Below are positions 55,052 through 64,000 of a stretch of DNA of 64,000 nucleotides, piece by piece. Both the position numbers and the translations under genes were made by a program. The stretch is taken from contig CAVRUH010000001.1 of assembly GCA_963724325.1 (NCBI GenBank), forward strand, positions 480,001-544,000. The letters are read 5' to 3'. Under the pieces are notes generated by a model. That model was not told the origin of the DNA. It was given only the letters and a program-made list of their open reading frames with translations, and searched no databases. Origin of the DNA: Waddliaceae bacterium. Its GTDB lineage: Bacteria; Chlamydiota; Chlamydiia; Chlamydiales; Waddliaceae. Position 1 is the first letter of the stretch. Every line of letters starts with the position of its first letter.

Positions 55052-56107
<1,056 letters not shown>

Positions 56108-56589
56108 TTAAGGGCATTTATAGATTTGTTTACCTACCCGATCGATATGGTTTTGAGGTCGGGATTGTCAATTGTGTGGTAATCTAGAATGTCGCATACA
56201 TAGGGAAGAGGGGATTCGTCATTTAGAATCCCTGATACCTCTGAAGCAACTGATTCAATATGGGTGCCTTTTAGGGCGATATCGATGTCGGATCCTTTCT
56301 TATATCTATCGAGTGCGCGTGAGCCAAAGAGGATTGCTTCCTGGATATTGGGATATTTTTTTAGGACGGATTGTTTAATTATTTCTCGAGGGTATTGAAC
56401 CGCTAATCCCTGCTCTTGAAGGTAATCTTTCAGTGTTTTCCAAGCCAATTCAAAGGTAAATTCGAATGACTGAACGAGACCGGCGCCTTGCAATTCATCA
56501 TAGGCGCCAAGTTCCTTGCCTTTTTTTAAAAATAAAAAAACTTTTTCAAAATTTTGAAACCGTTGTTTCCAGCGAATCTCTTTTTCCAT
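56108..56589 (-). pseudogene. Fused remnant of HEPN (HI0074-type) and nucleotidyltransferase (MNT) genes
   Basis: RWKQRFQNF...FEFTFELAWKTLKDYL...PREIIK joined in frame to LFGSRA...GSDIDIAL; adding one base at 56151-56154 restores HIDRVGKQIY. Confidence 0.8.
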
Positions 56590-56601
56590 ATATTCTTTCT
56601 T

Positions 56602-58602
56602 TCAATAGAGCTCAATCTGTTCGTATTTGCGCATTAGGTCTCGGAAGTTTGCGGCATCTTCAAAGCGCATCTCTTTTGCCGCTCTTTTCATTTCAGAGTC
56701 ATAGAATTTGATTTTTTTGTCAACCTCGGCTTGGGTGAGGTACTCATGATGTGTTTCAGCTGCCATACGAAGGGGTACTTCCGGAGTCGTATATTCAATT
56801 TCTTCCACCTCAGGGAGCACAAGCGCAATAATCTCCCTCTTCACTGTGGTTGGTGTGATGCCATGTTTTTCATTGTACTCTTCCTGAAGGGATCGACGTT
56901 CCTGGGTGATATTAATGGTATTTTTAATCGCCTCGGTCATGTGATCGCAATACATGATGACTCGGCCTTCCGAATTGCGCGAAGCGCGTCCACAGGTTTG
57001 TATGAGGGCTGTTTGACTGCGGAGAAATCCTTGCTTGTCAGCGTCTAGAATGCAAACAAGAGAAACTTCGGGTATATCGAGGCCTTCTCGTAGAAGATTG
57101 ATTCCAACAAGAACATCAAAGGTGCCAGAACGGAGATCTTGAATGATTTGCGATCTTTCAATCGTGTCAATATCAGAATGGAGGTATTTTGCTTTTACAT
57201 TGAGTTCTGTGAGATACTTAGAAAGCTCTTCGGAAAGTCTTTTAGTTAATGTCGTGACAAGAATTCTTCCGCCGCGTGAAACATGTTCTCGAATTTCGGC
57301 AAGTACATCATCCACCTGATTTGCAGCAGGCCTAGTTTCTATTATCGGATCAAGCAATCCCGTTGGACGAATCACTTGCTCTACAATTTCTTCTCCAGCT
57401 TCATGAATCTCCCAAGGGGCAGGTGTTGCAGAAACGTAGATTACTTGATTCATTCTAGCATAGGTCTCTTCAAATTTTAAAGGTCGGTTGTCATAAGCTG
57501 AGGGAAGACGGAAGCCAAAATCGACCAACGCCTGCTTCCTAGCACGGTCTCCATTGAACATCGCATGAAGCTGGGGGATCGTTTGATGAGATTCATCAAT
57601 AATAAAAAGGTAATCCTTAGGAAAATAGTCAATTAAACATGAGGGAGGATCTCCTTCATTACGCATGGCGAAATGCCTTGAGTAGTTTTCGATTCCCTTG
57701 CAGAAGCCCACTTCCTTAATCATTTCAAGATCATGCATGGTCCTTTCATGGATTCGCTGTTTTTCAATGAATTTATTTTCTTTCTCAAAAAAATCGACCC
57801 GATCTTTTAATTCCAATTTTATATTTTCCATAGCCTGAAGACGAACTTCTTCAGGGGTGACGTGGTGAGAACTTGGATAAATGTTCATTTCATCTATAAG
57901 ACTGCGTGTTTTTCCTGTTAGTGGATCGATAACTGAGAGTCTTTCGATATCATCTCCAAACATTTCGACTCGAATAGCCAGGTCTTCTTCATAAGCAGGA
58001 AATATGTCAATGATATCGCCGCGAACACGGAATGTTGCACGGCTGAAATCGAAGTCATTTCTTTTGTATTGCATCTCAACCAAATGGAGAAGCAAATCAT
58101 CGCGTCGGCGCTTTTCCCCAGTTTTGAGCTTTAAATTCATGCCGCGGTAGTATTCGGGAGATCCCAATCCGTAAATGCACGAAACAGAAGCAACAATCAG
58201 AACGTCATCACGCTCCAGAAGCGATCTGGTAGCGCTCAGGCGCATTTTATCGATCCTGTCGTTGATTGCCATGTCTTTTTCGATATAGGTGTCTGTACGG
58301 GCAATGTAGGCCTCTGGCTGGTAGTAGTCGTAATAAGAAACAAAATATTCAATAGCATTATTTGGAAAGAAGTTTTTAAATTCCTGATACAGCTGCGCTG
58401 CAAGAGTCTTATTGTGGGCCATTACTAAAGTAGGTTTTTGAATGCGCTCTACCACATTTGCCATGGTAAAGGTCTTGCCTGAACCTGTGATTCCCAAGAG
58501 AACCTGTGACTTCTTTCCTCGTTTAAGCCCGTCCACAAGCTTTTCAACTGCCTGCGGCTGATCTCCTTTCAATTTAAAGTCACTTCTAATCTGAAATTTC
58601 AT
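56602..58602 (-). CDS. uvrB: Excinuclease ABC subunit B
   Basis: GDQP.A, GITGSGKT, YYDYYQPEAY, DESH, GINLLREGLD. Confidence 0.98.
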   Translation of the reverse strand: MKFQIRSDFKLKGDQPQAVEKLVDGLKRGKKSQVLLGITGSGKTFTMANVVERIQKPTLVMAHNKTLAAQLYQEFKNFFPNNAIEYFVSYYDYYQPEAYIARTDTYIEKDMAINDRIDKMRLSATRSLLERDDVLIVASVSCIYGLGSPEYYRGMNLKLKTGEKRRRDDLLLHLVEMQYKRNDFDFSRATFRVRGDIIDIFPAYEEDLAIRVEMFGDDIERLSVIDPLTGKTRSLIDEMNIYPSSHHVTPEEVRLQAMENIKLELKDRVDFFEKENKFIEKQRIHERTMHDLEMIKEVGFCKGIENYSRHFAMRNEGDPPSCLIDYFPKDYLFIIDESHQTIPQLHAMFNGDRARKQALVDFGFRLPSAYDNRPLKFEETYARMNQVIYVSATPAPWEIHEAGEEIVEQVIRPTGLLDPIIETRPAANQVDDVLAEIREHVSRGGRILVTTLTKRLSEELSKYLTELNVKAKYLHSDIDTIERSQIIQDLRSGTFDVLVGINLLREGLDIPEVSLVCILDADKQGFLRSQTALIQTCGRASRNSEGRVIMYCDHMTEAIKNTINITQERRSLQEEYNEKHGITPTTVKREIIALVLPEVEEIEYTTPEVPLRMAAETHHEYLTQAEVDKKIKFYDSEMKRAAKEMRFEDAANFRDLMRKYEQIELY

Positions 58603-59843
58603 GATCGAAAATATGGGTCGAAGTGAAAGCCCAAATGCTGGTCTTCAACTGAGTCTGCGATGTGTTTTTTTGGATGACGCGAATGATCAAATTCACGATG
58701 AGGATTCATAAATAGTTCTAAGATCTCATCTGTAATTTGAACACGAGCCTCCTGGTGCTCACGCAATACTCCCCAAACTACCTCTATTGTTTTCTTTTTA
58801 ACCTCTGAGGTCATCATCCTTCCTGCCTGATATTCCTTGGCAATTCTTTTTAGTTCTATGTCGTCATCAAGGAAATAAAGCAAGTAATGATACGCCACAT
58901 CTACAGCCAAATTCGCCCCTTTTTCAATATGTTCCTGTTTAGTCATTCCCCCGCCGGAAAAGGCCTTTTCCCTAATTTTTTTGGAGACCATTTCCTCTGT
59001 ATCATTCATGAAAATCACTTCTTTTTGACCGGTAGAACTTGCTTTGTCATGTGCATGTTCCAGGCTAGGTAAAAAACGGGATTGGATAGTTGCAGGTTTC
59101 TTAAAGCCTATTTTGCGAGCAATTTCCCGCGCCATCTTGAAATATGGATATTGATCAATTGCCATAGGCACAAGGCAATACAACTGCTGATCTTTGAATA
59201 TATTCTCAAATGAGGTGCTAAATGCCGGAGCCGCCTGAAAACAAGGCCAACTTAATTGACCAACGCTATTATTCAAATCCAATCCATAAATACCATGAAT
59301 CATATTCCCCGAGGTGTGCTTCATAATCATGACAATATTGCGATAATAAGATCCACCAACGGTTTCCAAATTTGAAAAAATCCACGTTTTCTGCGGGTTA
59401 AAACCACAGGCGATAATATCTTTGGCATTAAAACGCACCAAGCGGTTAGCCTCTTCTAAAGGAAGATTATCTTTAAAATAATATTTTTCGTCATCAGTCA
59501 TCATCACTACAACAATGGCATCAAAGGCATCCTGAAGATATTTAGTAAACATAAAAGGTACCATATGACCAAGATGTAAAGATTCCGAACTTGGTCCTCT
59601 CCCAGTATATAAATAAATTTCTTCCCCTCGCTCATAAGCATCGAGCACTAGATTAAGATCTTTGTGAGAAAAGAAAATCCCTCTTCGCAACCAAGGATGA
59701 GCCTTCATTTTTGTGACACGCTCAAAACGACTTATCAGAGAACTATCAATAGGCTGACAAGCAAATTGTTCAATCAATTTCAAATAATCAATTCCAGTTG
59801 TGGAGGTCACTTCCCAAGGGGTTATCTTAGCTTCTTCTTCCAT
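58599..59843 (-). CDS. trpS: Tryptophan--tRNA ligase, eukaryotic/archaeal type
   Basis: PW.V....IDY.KLI..F, LRRGIFFSH, YLYTGRGPSS..LHLGH, AIDQ.PYF, AFSGG. Confidence 0.93.
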   Translation of the reverse strand: MEEEAKITPWEVTSTTGIDYLKLIEQFACQPIDSSLISRFERVTKMKAHPWLRRGIFFSHKDLNLVLDAYERGEEIYLYTGRGPSSESLHLGHMVPFMFTKYLQDAFDAIVVVMMTDDEKYYFKDNLPLEEANRLVRFNAKDIIACGFNPQKTWIFSNLETVGGSYYRNIVMIMKHTSGNMIHGIYGLDLNNSVGQLSWPCFQAAPAFSTSFENIFKDQQLYCLVPMAIDQYPYFKMAREIARKIGFKKPATIQSRFLPSLEHAHDKASSTGQKEVIFMNDTEEMVSKKIREKAFSGGGMTKQEHIEKGANLAVDVAYHYLLYFLDDDIELKRIAKEYQAGRMMTSEVKKKTIEVVWGVLREHQEARVQITDEILELFMNPHREFDHSRHPKKHIADSVEDQHLGFHFDPYFRS

Positions 59844-59847
59844 ATAA

Positions 59848-60990
59848 TTATGACTCCTTTATTATTTCTAATATTATTACAGAAATAGCAAATAGAATCA
59901 CTAAAGAAAGCGTCCATTTTCCTCCAGGAACGAATCGAACTGGCCCCTTCCAAGCCATTAAAGCTGGTAGAATTCCAAATAATATTACCGCTCCATAAGC
60001 TCCAGCACAAGATAACGCCACCAAAAAAACTTTAGGATAAACCAAACCAAATAAAAATGGGGGAAGGAGGCATAAAGCAATCAAAATTATTTTACCGAAG
60101 GGGGTCTTTTTGATTCGCAAACCGTCCGAAAGGAAGTCAACAAAACTCAAAGCAACACTCAATAAAGAAGTTACAATCGCAAAAAAGGCAAATAAATCAG
60201 CTATATCAACAATCCATCCCGAACCAATAGTATGCCTTAAAGAGCGGGTTGCCATTTCTCCCCCGTCAACTGCCTGACGGAGCCCATCTAGCGGTATCAA
60301 ACCAAGAATCACAAATTCCCATACGAGATAAACCAGCAGGGGGATGCCGCTTCCAATTAAGATCATCGTTCTTAGCTGTTTAACATTTCCCTCCATGTAG
60401 GTCCTTAGAGTCGGAATGAGGTTGTGATATCCAAAAGAAATCACCATGGCAGGGACCACAAACGCAGCCGCAGTCCAGTCAGTCTGTTTGAGATAATCCA
60501 TATGTACATAAGGCACACCAAAAAAGACCAGCAACACATAAGTGATGAATACTCCGACCATAAGAAATCTGTTGAAATGGTCCACGCTTGCTGTCCCCAA
60601 ATAAAGAAAAATAGCAAAAACAAGCAACATCAAGAAGCTGGCAACCGATTCATGAAGATTTGTAAAATCCGAAATCAACTGGCCCGTCCCGATTATATAC
60701 GCAACCATAAGCGAATAGAAAAGGAAGGTAAACAAAAGCCACGTTAGATATTTACCAATGGGTCCCAACGAACCTTCCGCCATCGACAGAAGATTTGTTC
60801 CATTCGGAAATCGTAAGTTAACCTCAAGTACAATCAACCCCGTAACAGCCATGAAGAGCCACGAGACAAAAAATAATAGTACAGACGGCTGAAACCCGGC
60901 TACTCCGGTTAATACAGGCAATCCTAACATTCCCGCGCCTATGCAGCATCCGGCAATAAGAAGAATTCCACCCCACATTTTACTTATCAT
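59848..60990 (-). CDS. Aromatic amino acid permease (TyrP/Mtr, HAAAP family)
   Basis: GGILLIAG..IGAGMLGLP, SFGYHNLIP, GS.IPL..YLVW. Confidence 0.9.
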   Translation of the reverse strand: MISKMWGGILLIAGCCIGAGMLGLPVLTGVAGFQPSVLLFFVSWLFMAVTGLIVLEVNLRFPNGTNLLSMAEGSLGPIGKYLTWLLFTFLFYSLMVAYIIGTGQLISDFTNLHESVASFLMLLVFAIFLYLGTASVDHFNRFLMVGVFITYVLLVFFGVPYVHMDYLKQTDWTAAAFVVPAMVISFGYHNLIPTLRTYMEGNVKQLRTMILIGSGIPLLVYLVWEFVILGLIPLDGLRQAVDGGEMATRSLRHTIGSGWIVDIADLFAFFAIVTSLLSVALSFVDFLSDGLRIKKTPFGKIILIALCLLPPFLFGLVYPKVFLVALSCAGAYGAVILFGILPALMAWKGPVRFVPGGKWTLSLVILFAISVIILEIIKES

Positions 60991-62624
60991 TTTTTATCCA
61001 ACATTTTGTTTTTCAGCTTTTTTTGTTCTTGAGACATCCGTCCTAATTCGTACCCCTCGTAGTCGACAAATTTAAAAAATCGTTCAAATTGCGGGATGGC
61101 ATTTATCGTCTGTCTTGCCAATTCTTGGGCCACTTTTCTATAAGCAGGATGGCCAGCAGGGGAAGAACGAAGTTCGCACAACCATTGGAGGGAGCGCAAG
61201 TTCACATGGAAGTACCAGCGGATATTATAGGCCATCGGAACAACGTACTGTGCCTCTTCCGGAAGCTCAGTGGCAATCGTATCAAAGGCCTCTTTGGCTT
61301 TCTCCATCACTTTGTGATATTCCGCCTCAATTTCCATTCCTTCGATCTCTGGAGGAGTAAAATAGCCGTAATCGCAACACAGTTGTTGACGCTCCTGCGT
61401 CAACATCCGGTGGCGGTGAAGGTCCCGATAAGCACCAAAATCCGTCAACATCTCAAAAGTAAAATTAGCATGCTCAAGGGCTCTAGGAGATTTATTGCGT
61501 CTGTTTTCTCGAGCACCGCATGCGGCATCGAGAATTCTCTCAACCTCATCTTTTGGAAGCTCTTTACAGTATTTCCAAAGGTCAGAGAATCCTTTATCTG
61601 AATTACCATACATGAGAGCAGCAGCTACTTTTGTGACAGCGTCTTGATCAAATGAGATTAGTGAGACGCCATTTTCCATGCTTCGCTGAGGAAAGGTCGC
61701 ATTCTGTGCGGTTACTAGGGCAATCTCTGCACTGCTTGCTTCGTGATACTGCGCATAATTTTTATGAGTGTGATGTGCGGGGTCTGAACGACGAATAAAA
61801 GATGGAATGACCTTCGACAGTTCCTCATGGGCTCGTTTTGCCATCTCTTGCATTTCCGCAAGATTGCTGCAATGCAATCTATGCAGCAAACTTTCGTAGA
61901 ATCGACCATTGGCGAAAATTCCCATATTAGTCAGGGTGCCAGAAGGGAGAAGACCTCTTAGACAGTCAAGAACTTTGGCCCTGAGAGCTGCCGAATAAGC
62001 CACTTTTGAAGTTTTTGGGTCGTGAGGCATCAATTTTTCGATTTTTTCGGTCAAGATTGGAATCATTTTACTGTACGTATCAAATAGCATATTGCAAGTC
62101 TCAATATAGAGATCCCTGTAAGCAGAAGTCATTAAGATTGGTTCGCGGTAAAAGAGGTATTCTCCCTTCACTTTTTGGTCAAAATAAATGTAGCGTGTAG
62201 ATTTCTCAAGAGGAGATCCTCCAATGCGACAATCTTCGATTATTTTGGCTGCTAACATTGAAATATTTTCAATTGCCAAGTGGGCTCCTCCCAGTTCGCC
62301 GATCGAGTCATCGCCATAACCATCGAGAATACGGTCATAAAAAGCTTGCGCCTTTTTTATAGCGAGCGATTGATCAGCACTTTGGGCTGAAGGGTTGACC
62401 CCAACGATTTCGGAGAATGCGCTCTCGTCAGTATTGCTAATAAACTCCTTTAATAAAAGAGTTCGGAGGCCCAAATTCGATCTGGAGTAGCGAGAAAAGA
62501 GCGCCCCCTTGATCACTTCAGGCAAGTTGCGTAGGACGAAAATGTGGCTAGAAGTGCTCGTCACATAGGTTTTCAAAATATTTATTTGACTTTCTGAGAA
62601 CTCTTCATAATTCTCTTCGAACAT
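60987..62624 (-). CDS. thyX: FAD-dependent thymidylate synthase, chlamydial two-domain form
   Basis: LFSRYSRS, GYGDDS, EKSTRY, RDLHRHR, ELRS. Confidence 0.93.
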   Translation of the reverse strand: MFEENYEEFSESQINILKTYVTSTSSHIFVLRNLPEVIKGALFSRYSRSNLGLRTLLLKEFISNTDESAFSEIVGVNPSAQSADQSLAIKKAQAFYDRILDGYGDDSIGELGGAHLAIENISMLAAKIIEDCRIGGSPLEKSTRYIYFDQKVKGEYLFYREPILMTSAYRDLYIETCNMLFDTYSKMIPILTEKIEKLMPHDPKTSKVAYSAALRAKVLDCLRGLLPSGTLTNMGIFANGRFYESLLHRLHCSNLAEMQEMAKRAHEELSKVIPSFIRRSDPAHHTHKNYAQYHEASSAEIALVTAQNATFPQRSMENGVSLISFDQDAVTKVAAALMYGNSDKGFSDLWKYCKELPKDEVERILDAACGARENRRNKSPRALEHANFTFEMLTDFGAYRDLHRHRMLTQERQQLCCDYGYFTPPEIEGMEIEAEYHKVMEKAKEAFDTIATELPEEAQYVVPMAYNIRWYFHVNLRSLQWLCELRSSPAGHPAYRKVAQELARQTINAIPQFERFFKFVDYEGYELGRMSQEQKKLKNKMLDKK

Positions 62625-62703
62625 ACATTTACCTCTGGGTCTGGTTATTTCGTGGTATTTAGCGTGCCAGATAATCGAACAAGTTTCAAGTAAAATTTAT
62701 TTT

Positions 62704-63267
62704 TCATGAACTATAGCGGTGATGTTTTCTGAATTTATACAGACGTTCGGTGAAGCCACCCTCGTTTTTGAATGCTTCGGTCTGTGCTTGTATTTGTTTG
62801 TTTAACAGTGAGCAAGTAACTTGTATTAAGACCAATACGGTATTGGCCGCTATTTGGGGGACAGGTTCATTATCTCGAATATGGACTCCTTTTACCCATG
62901 CAGCAACCTGGTTAGCAGAAGAAAAGCGCGCAGACACAATTTCCATTCGACGCTTGTCCTTTCTCCTCCAAACAGCATAATTTCCCTATCGAATAAAATC
63001 TTCGTAATCGAGAAGTAACTCTTCTAGACTCGCCCTGGCCACGTTAGTTAATTTAAGTTCTGTTTTCTTTGAGGTACCCGAGGCCTGGCTTCCTTCAGCA
63101 ATATTCTGAACCCCCGAGCGGGCAGCCTGCACCATCTGATCATGTGTGCGACTGTATTTTCTAAGAAATTTATCGCAAAAACGCAGGGTAACATCATAAA
63201 CAAGCCTGGCGATCTGAAAGCTTTTCAGATTCCGATATCCCCCATGTGTTGGAATTAAATTGTCCAT
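62704..63267 (-). pseudogene. Four-helix-bundle protein with suffix domain, interrupted by in-frame TAG
   Basis: HGGYRNL, DQMVQAARSG.QNIAEG, ARASLEELL.DYEDF; TAG at 62986-62988 then the same frame continues to AAN...EGGFTERLY. Confidence 0.85.
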
Positions 63268-63316
63268 AATCGAAAAATCCTACATCATCAAACACTATTT
63301 TCTCAAGATTTTAATC

Positions 63317-63350
63317 GTCCATAAAGTCCATTTCGTCCATAATTGTCCAT
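63317..63350. repeat. Short tandem repeat of GTCCAT, period 9-10
   Basis: GTCCAT at 63317, 63326, 63335, 63345. Confidence 0.8.
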
Positions 63351-64000
63351 ATGAACAACGATATTTTACAATGGAACCGCGAGGGACTTATTCCTGGTCC
63401 AAACGAGTCCGAAGAAACATACCGGCAAAGAGTTGCTTATTGCCTAAATTTGGATAAAGAAACTTTGCCTCTAAAGGAAGAGGAAAAAGCTGACAAAAGT
63501 TTTTTATCTTCGGCCCTCTCTCAAACAAAAGAATTATTCGATATTGTCCCAGAATGGATCCCCCTCTTTTTCAGCAATTATAAACTGGCTCCTTGGCATG
63601 GAGGGTGCGCCTGGATCTTCCAAGTGACAGAAAATTCCCCAACTGGAGCCATTTTTCAACTCAGACGATCATTCTGGAAATCAACAAAATACCTTGGCAT
63701 GTATGACCGGGACGAACTCATCGCCCACGAGCTCGCTCATGTGGGCAGAATGGTCTTTGAAGAACCCATCTTCGAAGAATTCCACGCCTATCGCACATCA
63801 AAGTCCAGTTTTAGAAGATGGTTAGGACCCATCATTCAATCTCCTAGAGAAAGCATTTTATTCATTTTACTGTTTCCCCTCATTTTTTTTGCACTGATAA
63901 GGCTCATCCGACGTCAGTTCCAATTTAAAAAATGCCTGAACAACCTCAGTTTTTTTTCAAATCCCAATGCCGTTATATATCGATTAACCGACAAGGAAAT
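63351..64000 (+). CDS. Hypothetical protein with HExxH motif (runs off window)
   Basis: Manual translation open to the end: MNNDILQWNREGLIPGPNE...PWHGGCAW...AHELAHVGR..FEE. Confidence 0.75.
   Translation, partial: MNNDILQWNREGLIPGPNESEETYRQRVAYCLNLDKETLPLKEEEKADKSFLSSALSQTKELFDIVPEWIPLFFSNYKLAPWHGGCAWIFQVTENSPTGAIFQLRRSFWKSTKYLGMYDRDELIAHELAHVGRMVFEEPIFEEFHAYRTSKSSFRRWLGPIIQSPRESILFILLFPLIFFALIRLIRRQFQFKKCLNNLSFFSNPNAVIYRLTDKE

Follow-up and report, generated by a model that had tools for sequence, protein, structure and literature searches.

Introduction

Displacement of an essential aminoacyl-tRNA synthetase (aaRS) by a cross-domain homologue that is gained horizontally, while the native gene is lost, is a known event; the eukaryote-like IleRS of mupirocin resistance and the class I LysRS of spirochaetes are classical examples. 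Here, a gene for tryptophanyl-tRNA synthetase (TrpRS) is described that lies on a 64,000-nucleotide stretch of DNA (hereafter the window) from a Waddliaceae bacterium of the phylum Chlamydiota (GenBank assembly GCA_963724325.1, contig CAVRUH010000001.1, positions 480,001 to 544,000 of the forward strand). Its product resembles the TrpRSs of the eukaryotic cytosol and of giant viruses, and the gene stands where related bacteria keep a bacterial-type trpS. In the reading favored here, to which I would give a probability of roughly 80%, this foreign TrpRS is the sole TrpRS of its genome, its lineage entered Chlamydiota once and spread laterally, and it replaced the native gene inside the native slot of this bacterium. 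Xenologous aaRS displacement is thus known in principle, and the chlamydial case shares its general course. It differs from the classical cases in the repeated swaps, which seem to be precise to the promoter and to the open reading frame (ORF) at two native slots, in a donor lineage shared with giant viruses, in the conflict between the major identity element A73 and the recipient tRNA, and in the reciprocal relics of the native and the foreign genes.

Excerpts of two papers describe how TrpRSs recognize their tRNA. The identity elements of tRNATrp are A73, G1:C72, and U5:G68 in eukaryotes and archaea and G73, A1:U72, and G5:C68 in bacteria, and human TrpRS reads A73 through Asp99, Lys102, and Arg106 (PMC1538984). 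According to the other excerpt, bacterial TrpRS reads G73 via conserved Gln/Glu residues that are missing from eukaryotic-type enzymes, and human TrpRS is 91-fold less efficient on the Bacillus subtilis tRNA (PMC12135181). An excerpt of a third paper assigns clades I and II of the viral TrpRSs to 'Other Euk&V' (PMC11304981, Table 1), and the word 'Chlamydiae' has 0 occurrences in PMC11304981. No description of a eukaryote-type TrpRS in Chlamydiae was found in the literature, where most matches were judged from abstracts and supplements lay outside the search. The foreign TrpRS sequences themselves are already public under generic names.

A TrpRS of the eukaryotic cytosolic type

Genome codes (G000, G195, and so on) and family and genus codes (f1, g40, and so on) label a set of Chlamydiota, in which G000 is the genome under study. 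Its assembly is 2.37 Mb in 11 contigs, and the window is G000:C1:480001-544000, on a contig of 1.11 Mb. In the ORF list of the window, the TrpRS ORF occupies 58599..59843 on the minus strand, starts with ATG, and encodes 414 amino acid residues.

In a phmmer search of PDB, the top match of this protein was human cytosolic TrpRS (2quh_A, E 1.8e-124, residues 3-392), and the top 20 matches were all TrpRS chains. The chains 2a4m_A and 1yi8_B, which I take to be bacterial-type TrpRSs, gave only ~3e-6. With the NCBIfam models, the protein scored 245.3 bits for TIGR00233 (trpS, all domains) against a cut-off of 176.75, while the subtype models NF008927 and NF008924 gave 344 and 321 bits, under their cut-offs of 478 and 644. 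The matching cytoplasmic Trp--tRNA ligase clusters of the protein atlas are 63-98% Eukaryota.

Every motif that the first-pass annotation had quoted for a eukaryote-type TrpRS is present in the translation of 58599..59843: ITPWEV...GIDYLKLIEQF, HPWLRRGIFFSH, YLYTGRGPSS, AIDQYPYF, AFSGG, and DKASST at the KMSKS position. The N-terminal β-hairpin/helix α1' fragment (TPWEV...GIDYLKLIEQF) aligns to human residues 86-107. As for the class I signatures, the HIGH-type HLGH (residues 90-93; 59565..59576, minus strand) corresponds to human HVGH and its H90, G92, and H93 are invariant in the alignment, AIDQ lies at residues 228-231, and the KASST loop deviates yet is recognizable, with Lys and Ser kept. 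Compared with the human enzyme and its structures (PDB 2quh, 2azx, 2ake/2dr2, and 1r6t), residues 3-392 are alignable with the β-hairpin, the α1' motif, HxGH, and AIDQ, the α11 insertion aligns without a gap, and Tyr159 is kept as Tyr79. In contrast, the G000 enzyme has no WHEP domain or extended N-terminus, reads KASST for KMSAS, Tyr for D314, Gln/His for G345, and Met for Q194, adds a C-terminal FDxYF tail, and has a partner tRNA with G73 instead of A73. The native bacterial-type TrpRS of chlamydiae (G195, G039, G044, and f4/g8) has the same slot and operon partners and presumably the same role and tRNA substrate, but the G000 protein is only ~24% identical to the native trpS products of its relatives, which lack the N-terminal domain, and is not of the bacterial type. 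Judged from its sequence, the G000 TrpRS is of the eukaryotic cytosolic type in all the protein features tested except the loop Met and Gln194.

Is this the only TrpRS of the cell? A PF00579 search of G000 revealed two loci, the TrpRS gene and a locus on contig C7 (287 bits as a Trp/Tyr family member) that has only 19.9 bits for trpS and is presumably tyrS. Thus, the check for a second, bacterial trpS that the first-pass annotation had suggested turned up none in the G000 assembly with the PF00579 and TIGR00233 searches. Where the clade of chlamydial foreign TrpRSs is conserved to 97% or more, the G000 protein has 1 private change; the median of the clade is likewise 1, and this speaks for normal purifying selection. 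Since the gene is the sole copy, lies in the native slot, and is normally constrained, and since a native gene has decayed in another carrier (G109; see below), I infer that the foreign TrpRS is the working housekeeping TrpRS that charges the tRNATrp of the cell.

In-place replacement upstream of uvrB

The foreign gene is tightly coupled to its neighbors, as had been noticed at first sight. Its stop codon overlaps with the start codon of the native uvrB gene (56602..58602, minus strand; 666 residues; NF003673, 1027 bits) in the tetranucleotide ATGA, and a gap of 4 nucleotides separates its ATG from the stop codon of the upstream gene for a native aromatic amino acid permease of the Trp/Tyr family (59848..60990, minus strand; 380 residues; PF03222, E 2.9e-93). 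A sequence AGGAG lies 10 nucleotides ahead of the ATG.

The other five genomes of family f1, to which G000 belongs, all have a bacterial-type trpS (309-314 bits). Four of them, G195, G039, G044, and G285, have uvrB directly downstream of it on the same contig; the fifth, G199, is too fragmented to tell. In G039 and G044, thyX-permease-permease-trpS(bacterial)-uvrB comes after a divergent homologue of orf216, and the window is colinear with this order gene for gene except for one permease and the foreign TrpRS. The congener G195 has trpS(bacterial)-uvrB, and its UvrB is 83% identical to that of G000. The pairing of trpS and uvrB was also found in family f3 (G253 and G056, as dusB-permease-...-trpS-uvrB) and in family f11 (G033, as thyX-permease-...-trpS-uvrB). 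The adjacency of the two genes that the first-pass annotation gave for Chlamydia holds in the small-genome family f4/g8, in 3/3 genomes tested.

The DNA homology between G000 and its f1 relatives spans thyX and part of the permease gene and returns 32-36 nucleotides into uvrB. In 19 of 21 overlapping windows of 60 residues, the G000 UvrB is nearest to that of G195, with G039 and G044 of the same family slightly above in two central ones. The synteny with the f1 relatives bears out the earlier suggestion of an in-place xenologous replacement, and it indicates that one ORF was exchanged for another in the native slot of G000. This replacement is later than the split from G195, because G195, with the bacterial type, is the sister of G000 in the UvrB tree (support 100/98).

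The foreign TrpRS of G105, a member of f3, likewise occupies the native position, in the form that the uvrB slot takes in f3, and G105 and G000 share the same TrpRS-uvrB joint in one continuous DNA alignment of 2.9 kb. Two ideas about this joint were rejected. A mosaic uvrB, with a 5' tract co-transferred from a G105-like donor, does not fit, since G105 is lower in 21/21 windows (63% vs 80% in the first). Nor does the tight spacing to uvrB mark a shared foreign junction, since the native trpS also abuts uvrB in G039, G044, and G253.

Between dusB and the foreign TrpRS gene, G105 has a stretch of ~840 nucleotides (L041:6817-7652) with two short ORFs only (90 and 97 residues), where its f3 relatives have a permease. 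It may be what decay has left of the segment that was displaced.

Distribution and probable lateral spread in Chlamydiota

How common is the foreign TrpRS among chlamydiae? I surveyed 401 Chlamydiota genomes, 400 of which were scored, with the G000 protein as the query. The foreign type was found in 11/400 genomes of five families (E <= 3e-203, identity 73-100%): G000 (f1); G105 (f3); G239 and G162 (f6); G109 (f11); and G160, G169, G350, G356, G381, and G384 (f10). Among the other scored genomes, 157 gave weak matches (24-31%) to their own bacterial trpS, and in 232 a query this distant matched nothing. No second intact TrpRS was found with TIGR00233 in the 10 other carriers, so that the foreign type is the only intact TrpRS in 11/11 carriers, and both types intact in one genome were not seen among the 400 scored. 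It had been asked beforehand whether related chlamydiae broadly carry this type, which would speak against the proposed replacement. They do so only to a small extent; the distribution is patchy, and the same-genus G195 is bacterial.

In the protein database, about 90 clusters (P0002-P0090 and P0092) are 70-85% identical to the query, and identity then drops to 59% or less. Five public contigs of metagenome-assembled genomes carry the gene under the labels Parachlamydiales, Chlamydiae (twice), Rhabdochlamydiaceae, and 'Verrucomicrobia'. Three trees were built: a FastTree of 156 rows, an IQ-TREE with LG+G4 of 84 rows, and an IQ-TREE with LG+C20 and posterior mean site frequencies (PMSF) on the same 84 rows. 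The 84 rows comprise 12/15 chlamydial sequences, 24/42 unnamed sequences of the tail type (see below), 14/15 ORFs of IMG/VR loci, and 34/99 representatives; L109 was omitted for its in-frame stops, and L097, L110, and L111 were not extracted. The chlamydial foreign TrpRSs form one clade with a support of 100 in all three trees. Within this clade, the families are mixed under both IQ-TREE models, f6 appearing at two places and f1 beside f10.

The foreign TrpRS is more similar between families than UvrB is. Between f1, f3, and f10, TrpRS identity is 78-84% and UvrB identity 67-69%, and in the pairs with G109 (f11) the values are 69-73% and 64-66%. Within genus g40, TrpRS (82-91%) and UvrB (82-93%) are equally diverged, as are the native TrpRS and UvrB within f1 (75-81% for both). 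In a UvrB tree of 20 genomes, which is without G239 (no uvrB found) and G162, G199, and G285 (partial uvrB), at least 6 switches of the TrpRS type are required. Two pairs of sisters in this tree differ in type, namely G000/G195 (100/98) and G356/G181 (98/96), G195 and G181 being of the bacterial type. Since a chlamydia-only clade at 70-85% identity is combined with a patchy spread that conflicts with the UvrB tree, the immediate donor of the G000 gene was probably another chlamydia.

The G+C content (GC) and the GC at third codon positions (GC3) of each copy follow the host locus, with GC3 ranging from 0.34 to 0.60; thus, no transfer was very recent. Among the flanks of 10 copies (110 nucleotides upstream and 70 downstream), nothing common across families was found, and there were no mobile-element genes among 36 neighboring proteins.

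A second native slot and relics of both genes

In the six f10 (Rhabdochlamydiaceae-like) carriers, the foreign gene is divergent to pknD. A native trpS lies beside pknD at 13/18 bacterial-type loci of f7, f9, f10, f23, and f30, and also in the same-genus genomes G077 and G220. A short motif between pknD and trpS is common to genomes of the bacterial type and the foreign type, and the DNA homology between G356 and G181 stops within 3 nucleotides of the start codon. These comparisons point to a second in-place swap, at the pknD slot of the f10 genomes. Altogether, the foreign gene is in a native position in 8/11 carriers, in two different native contexts. The off-slot copies lie between a thioesterase gene and alaS in G109, near recQ and an NlpC/P60 gene in G239, and between two dehydrogenase genes in G162.

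In G109, the gene directly upstream of uvrB is a bacterial trpS in decay (L119:845-1504, on G109:C8). A frame of ~213 residues remains, from which the central domain and the regions of HIGH and KMSKS are deleted. The opposite case was found in G304 (f41), which has an intact bacterial trpS (C1:2229148-2230137, 306 bits) and two foreign-TrpRS fragments, at L017:1465-1701 (C1:1465794-1465976) and at C1:1753725-1753922. They cover about the last 56-67 residues, with a stop codon in one of them. For the fragment examined, identity is 45% over the last 56 residues, the FDPY tail included; in the phylum search, the identities were 41% and 38%. The fragments resemble remains of a foreign copy that has been lost.

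Origin of the foreign lineage

After the chlamydial clade, the best matches of the G000 protein are 54-59% identical over the full length and include the TrpRS of Catovirus CTV1 (55%) and a 'viral metagenome' protein. When the Catovirus protein was the query in turn, its own relatives came first and the chlamydial clade next. Relatives are encoded by 18 IMG/VR contigs (6 kb-2.5 Mb), many of them giant-virus metagenome-assembled genomes (GVMAGs).

A C-terminal tail that human TrpRS does not have is a further shared feature. In G000, it comprises residues 385-414 (58602..58691, minus strand), with GFHFDPYF at 405-412. The tail motif G-x-x-F-D-x-Y/T-F occurs in the chlamydial clade, in Catovirus, in five further IMG/VR contigs, and in many unnamed proteins; the tail-bearing giant-virus contigs of IMG/VR are L094, L095, L098, L099, L100, and L106. 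A KMSS(T/S)-like loop is also shared with the tail-type relatives, while eukaryotic sequences of the canonical KMSAS type are without the tail. The chlamydial clade nests in a tail-type group of 48 rows with 7 labelled giant-virus rows, with a Shimodaira-Hasegawa-like approximate likelihood ratio (SH-aLRT) support of 98 under LG+G4, and this group lies inside a clade of 58 rows with a support of 99. In the FastTree of 156 rows, the tail group has 64 rows (support 90).

Two metagenome proteins of the tail type, P0288 and P0290, have an N-terminal WHEP-TRS domain (PF00458). This domain is known as a eukaryote-specific appendage; its presence on them suggests that cellular eukaryotes, besides giant viruses, carry the source lineage.

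The giant-virus TrpRSs (Catovirus CTV1 and Imitervirales/GVMAG sequences) are thus the closest labelled relatives, with 55-56% identity over the full length including the tail, a KMSS(T/S) loop, and the nesting in the trees. In contrast to them, the chlamydial clade sits on a long stem of 0.34-0.39 substitutions per site and has A268, Y232, R256, and H319 fixed, and its genes lie in bacterial chromosomes, apparently under native bacterial promoters, with a G73 tRNA as the partner. The first-pass annotation proposed a eukaryotic host or a giant virus as the source. As the ultimate lineage this holds, but direct uptake by G000 is improbable, because a clade of about 90 chlamydial clusters is nearer.

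The partner tRNA and candidate residues of the enzyme

G000 has one tRNATrp(CCA) gene (C11:87726-87798), which does not encode the CCA end. Its acceptor stem is GGGUGUG/CGCACUC, with G1:C72, G2:U71, G5:C68, and the discriminator G73. Thus, the eukaryotic set (A73 with G1:C72 and U5:G68) is not that of the G000 tRNATrp, which is a property of the partner tRNA. In a survey of 30 genomes, the gene was found in 29, G381 being the one where it was not found, and the acceptor stem and G73 are the same for both TrpRS types in the 29 genomes (9 foreign and 20 bacterial). The G000 tRNATrp is 100% identical to those of G044, G199, G285, G253, and G304, all of which use a bacterial TrpRS. An adaptation of tRNATrp to the foreign enzyme, as predicted from the first look at the gene, is contradicted by these results. 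Since the tRNA is unchanged, the enzyme must have adapted, and it would charge a tRNATrp of the bacterial style (G73 and G5:C68, with G1:C72).

All the chlamydial tRNATrp genes examined (G000 and loci L064-L092) have G1:C72, not A1:U72. This eukaryote-like pair, a minor identity element, may have lowered the barrier to a foreign enzyme.

Which residues could have changed? The residues of 90 chlamydial, 51 tail-type, and 92 other sequences were compared, with the human numbering mapped by hand from the PDB alignment. The equivalent of helix α1', the A73-reading helix of the human enzyme, is GIDYLKLIEQF at residues 17-27 (59763..59795, minus strand). Its D19 and K22 correspond to D99 and K102, and Q26 stands for R106; the frequencies in the clade are 97% for D19, 89% for K22, and 69% for Q26.

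Several positions set the clade apart. Tyr232 in AIDQ-Y-PYF (59148..59150, minus strand) corresponds to human Asp314 and is Tyr in 100% of the 90 sequences, while Asp is found in 55% of the tail-type sequences and 85% of the others. In an excerpt of one paper, B. subtilis K149/E153 are equivalent to human D314/R318, and this site switches the tRNATrp species specificity (PMC1538984). In the KASST loop (residues 267-271; 59031..59045, minus strand), the KMSKS equivalent, Ala268 replaces human M350 in 100% of the 90 sequences, where the two comparison sets have Met in 94% and 92%. Human K338 is replaced by Arg256 and Q401 by His319 in 100% of the clade, F233 by Trp154 in 92%, K264 by His183 in 82%, and G345 by Gln/His263 (Q in 57%, H in 39%). 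In the clade these changes have reached or approached fixation, elsewhere they are rare, and helix α6 and the KMSAS loop border the acceptor end. On the strength of the alignment, D314Y, G345Q/H, M350A, K264H, and K338R are candidate changes for the tolerance of G73, as leads and not as proof.

One residue is private to G000. Met114 (59502..59504, minus strand; codon ATG) lies at the position of human Gln194, which is Gln in 89/90 clade members; Met occurs in 6/92 other representatives. A change from a Gln codon to ATG takes at least two base changes. As stated in the excerpt, Gln194 of the human enzyme hydrogen-bonds the indole nitrogen, Q194A lowers the activity 155-fold, and Q194L is inactive (PMC1538984).

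Proposed course of events and alternative explanations

The following scenario is proposed. A TrpRS lineage with the FDxYF tail, present in giant viruses (Imitervirales, e.g., Catovirus) and in presumed eukaryotes bearing WHEP, would have entered Chlamydiota once, and lateral transfer would then have carried the gene from one chlamydial lineage to another. After the split from G195, it would have replaced the native trpS ORF of the G000 lineage together with one of two tandem permease genes. In doing so, it would have inherited the native expression context, that is, the AGGAG 10 nucleotides upstream and the 4-nucleotide overlap with uvrB. The tolerance of G73 may have arisen along the long branch at the stem of the clade, via changes near the acceptor end and in the KMSKS loop. 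As for the driver, escape from inhibitors of bacterial TrpRS or a better use of scarce tryptophan may be speculated.

Several observations weigh against this scenario or parts of it. Eukaryotic TrpRSs charge G73 tRNA poorly, according to the excerpts (PMC1538984 and PMC12135181), and the A73-contacting residues D99 and K102 are retained in the G000 enzyme, so that the sequence alone gives no explanation for the acceptance of G73. Met114 of G000 lies at the position of the indole-binding Gln194, and the equivalent of the other indole-recognizing residue, Tyr159, is present as Tyr79. With an estimated completeness of 84.6% for G000, a second trpS in unassembled DNA is conceivable. The UvrB tree is a single-gene proxy of the species tree. 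As for the source, the nesting among the tail-type sequences has a moderate SH-aLRT of 82 under LG+C20 PMSF, nearly all the tail-type relatives are unnamed metagenome proteins, and an unsampled protist is as possible a donor as a giant virus. Finally, the public contigs that cover the joints of the gene reach only ~30 nucleotides into the TrpRS side and possibly come from the source sample.

An early chlamydial ancestor could have had both TrpRS types, with differential loss and no lateral movement afterwards. The monophyly of the foreign clade, the amelioration of every copy to the composition of its host, and the relics of both genes, which show that loss occurs, are all compatible with such vertical inheritance. 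It is nevertheless unlikely, because none of the 400 scored genomes has both types intact, the families are mixed within the clade, and the UvrB tree of 20 genomes requires at least 6 switches, two of them between close sisters. In addition, dozens of parallel losses would be needed, and TrpRS identity exceeds UvrB identity between families, though the divergence is equal within g40 and f1. That the G000 lineage took the gene directly from a eukaryotic host or a co-infecting giant virus would agree with the clear eukaryotic type of the enzyme and with Catovirus being among the nearest non-chlamydial relatives. I regard this as very unlikely; about 90 nearest clusters (70-85%) and 10 genomes are chlamydial, the viral and eukaryotic relatives reach 59% or less, the clade-fixed KASST, Tyr232, and His319 are not in the viral relatives, and one entry followed by spread is far more economical.

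Could the foreign gene be an auxiliary or moonlighting paralogue, with a housekeeping bacterial trpS hidden in unassembled sequence? The marker-based completeness of the 11-contig assembly leaves room for it, and so does the Met that stands in place of Gln194, a critical residue of the human enzyme. Against it stand the occupation of the native slot by the foreign gene, the absence of an intact bacterial trpS from 11/11 carriers that are 81-96% complete, the native gene decaying beside uvrB in G109, and the normal constraint on the G000 protein, and I hold it to be quite improbable. It is extremely unlikely that assembly or binning fused chlamydial DNA with a fragment of a eukaryote or virus. 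The assemblies are of the metagenome style, no public run contains more than 0.20 of the words sampled from the stretch, and other organisms contribute many cross-matches to these runs at a conserved part of uvrB. Yet the gene lies on a contig of 1.11 Mb between native neighbors, with the 4-nucleotide gap and overlap, its GC is 0.39 vs 0.40 for the genome, the independent G105 has the same TrpRS-uvrB joint, and soil-metagenome contigs run over both joints with zero mismatches (58476-58631 and 59814-59964), if only for some 30 nucleotides on one side.

Beyond the scenario of single entry, lateral spread, and replacement in the slot, a bolder version can be put forward only tentatively, and it is doubtful that all of it applies. 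The gene might be a roving cassette, that is, a TrpRS from the pool of giant viruses and protists with a relaxed or switched specificity (A73 to G73), which has repeatedly ousted the native trpS at the native promoter under pressure from an agent that hits bacterial-type TrpRS. In the amoeba or soil niche, tryptophan starvation, an inhibitor like indolmycin, or a factor of the host or of a virus directed against TrpRS might be such an agent. That the contest still runs both ways might then be read from the relics, native in G109 and foreign in G304.

Neighboring genes

Upstream of the permease gene lies a long ThyX-like gene (60987..62624, minus strand; 545 residues; PF02511, E 3.9e-46) with two Thy1 stretches, the best of them at residues 326-511. 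The protein is about twice as long as a usual ThyX, and its gene opens the thyX-permease-trpS-uvrB block in f1 and f11. Identity to the product of the syntenic gene is 74% in G039 and G044 and 62% in G033. The permease of the window is 58% (G039) and 54% (G044) identical to the thyX-proximal permease, and the second permease copy of G039 and G044 is missing in the window. On the other side, an ORF on the plus strand (55052-56107) encodes 351 residues with an N-terminal hydrophobic segment, a long collagen-like run of Gly-Pro-Thr/Gly-X-Y triplets, and a non-repetitive C-terminal domain. A scan of 55900-63500 for promoters and terminators gave 16 promoter-like and 5 terminator-like sites, not above shuffled sequence. 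Among the public runs listed for the stretch, none was of RNA.

Implications

The chlamydial clade of foreign TrpRSs would be a natural experiment in the rewriting of tRNA identity rules from the protein side, because the class of the foreign enzyme disfavors the G73 borne by the unchanged recipient tRNA. D314Y, the KMSKS loop, and the changes in helix α6 are the candidates to look at. The donor lineage shared with giant viruses points to a gene flow from a pool of viruses and protists to the intracellular bacteria of the same amoebal hosts. An altered sensitivity to indolmycin, which the first-pass annotation had considered, is plausible from the literature. More generally, the carriers should respond differently to inhibitors of bacterial TrpRS, which bears on TrpRS as an anti-chlamydial target, and the finding also bears on how tryptophan-related physiology is read in Chlamydiota.

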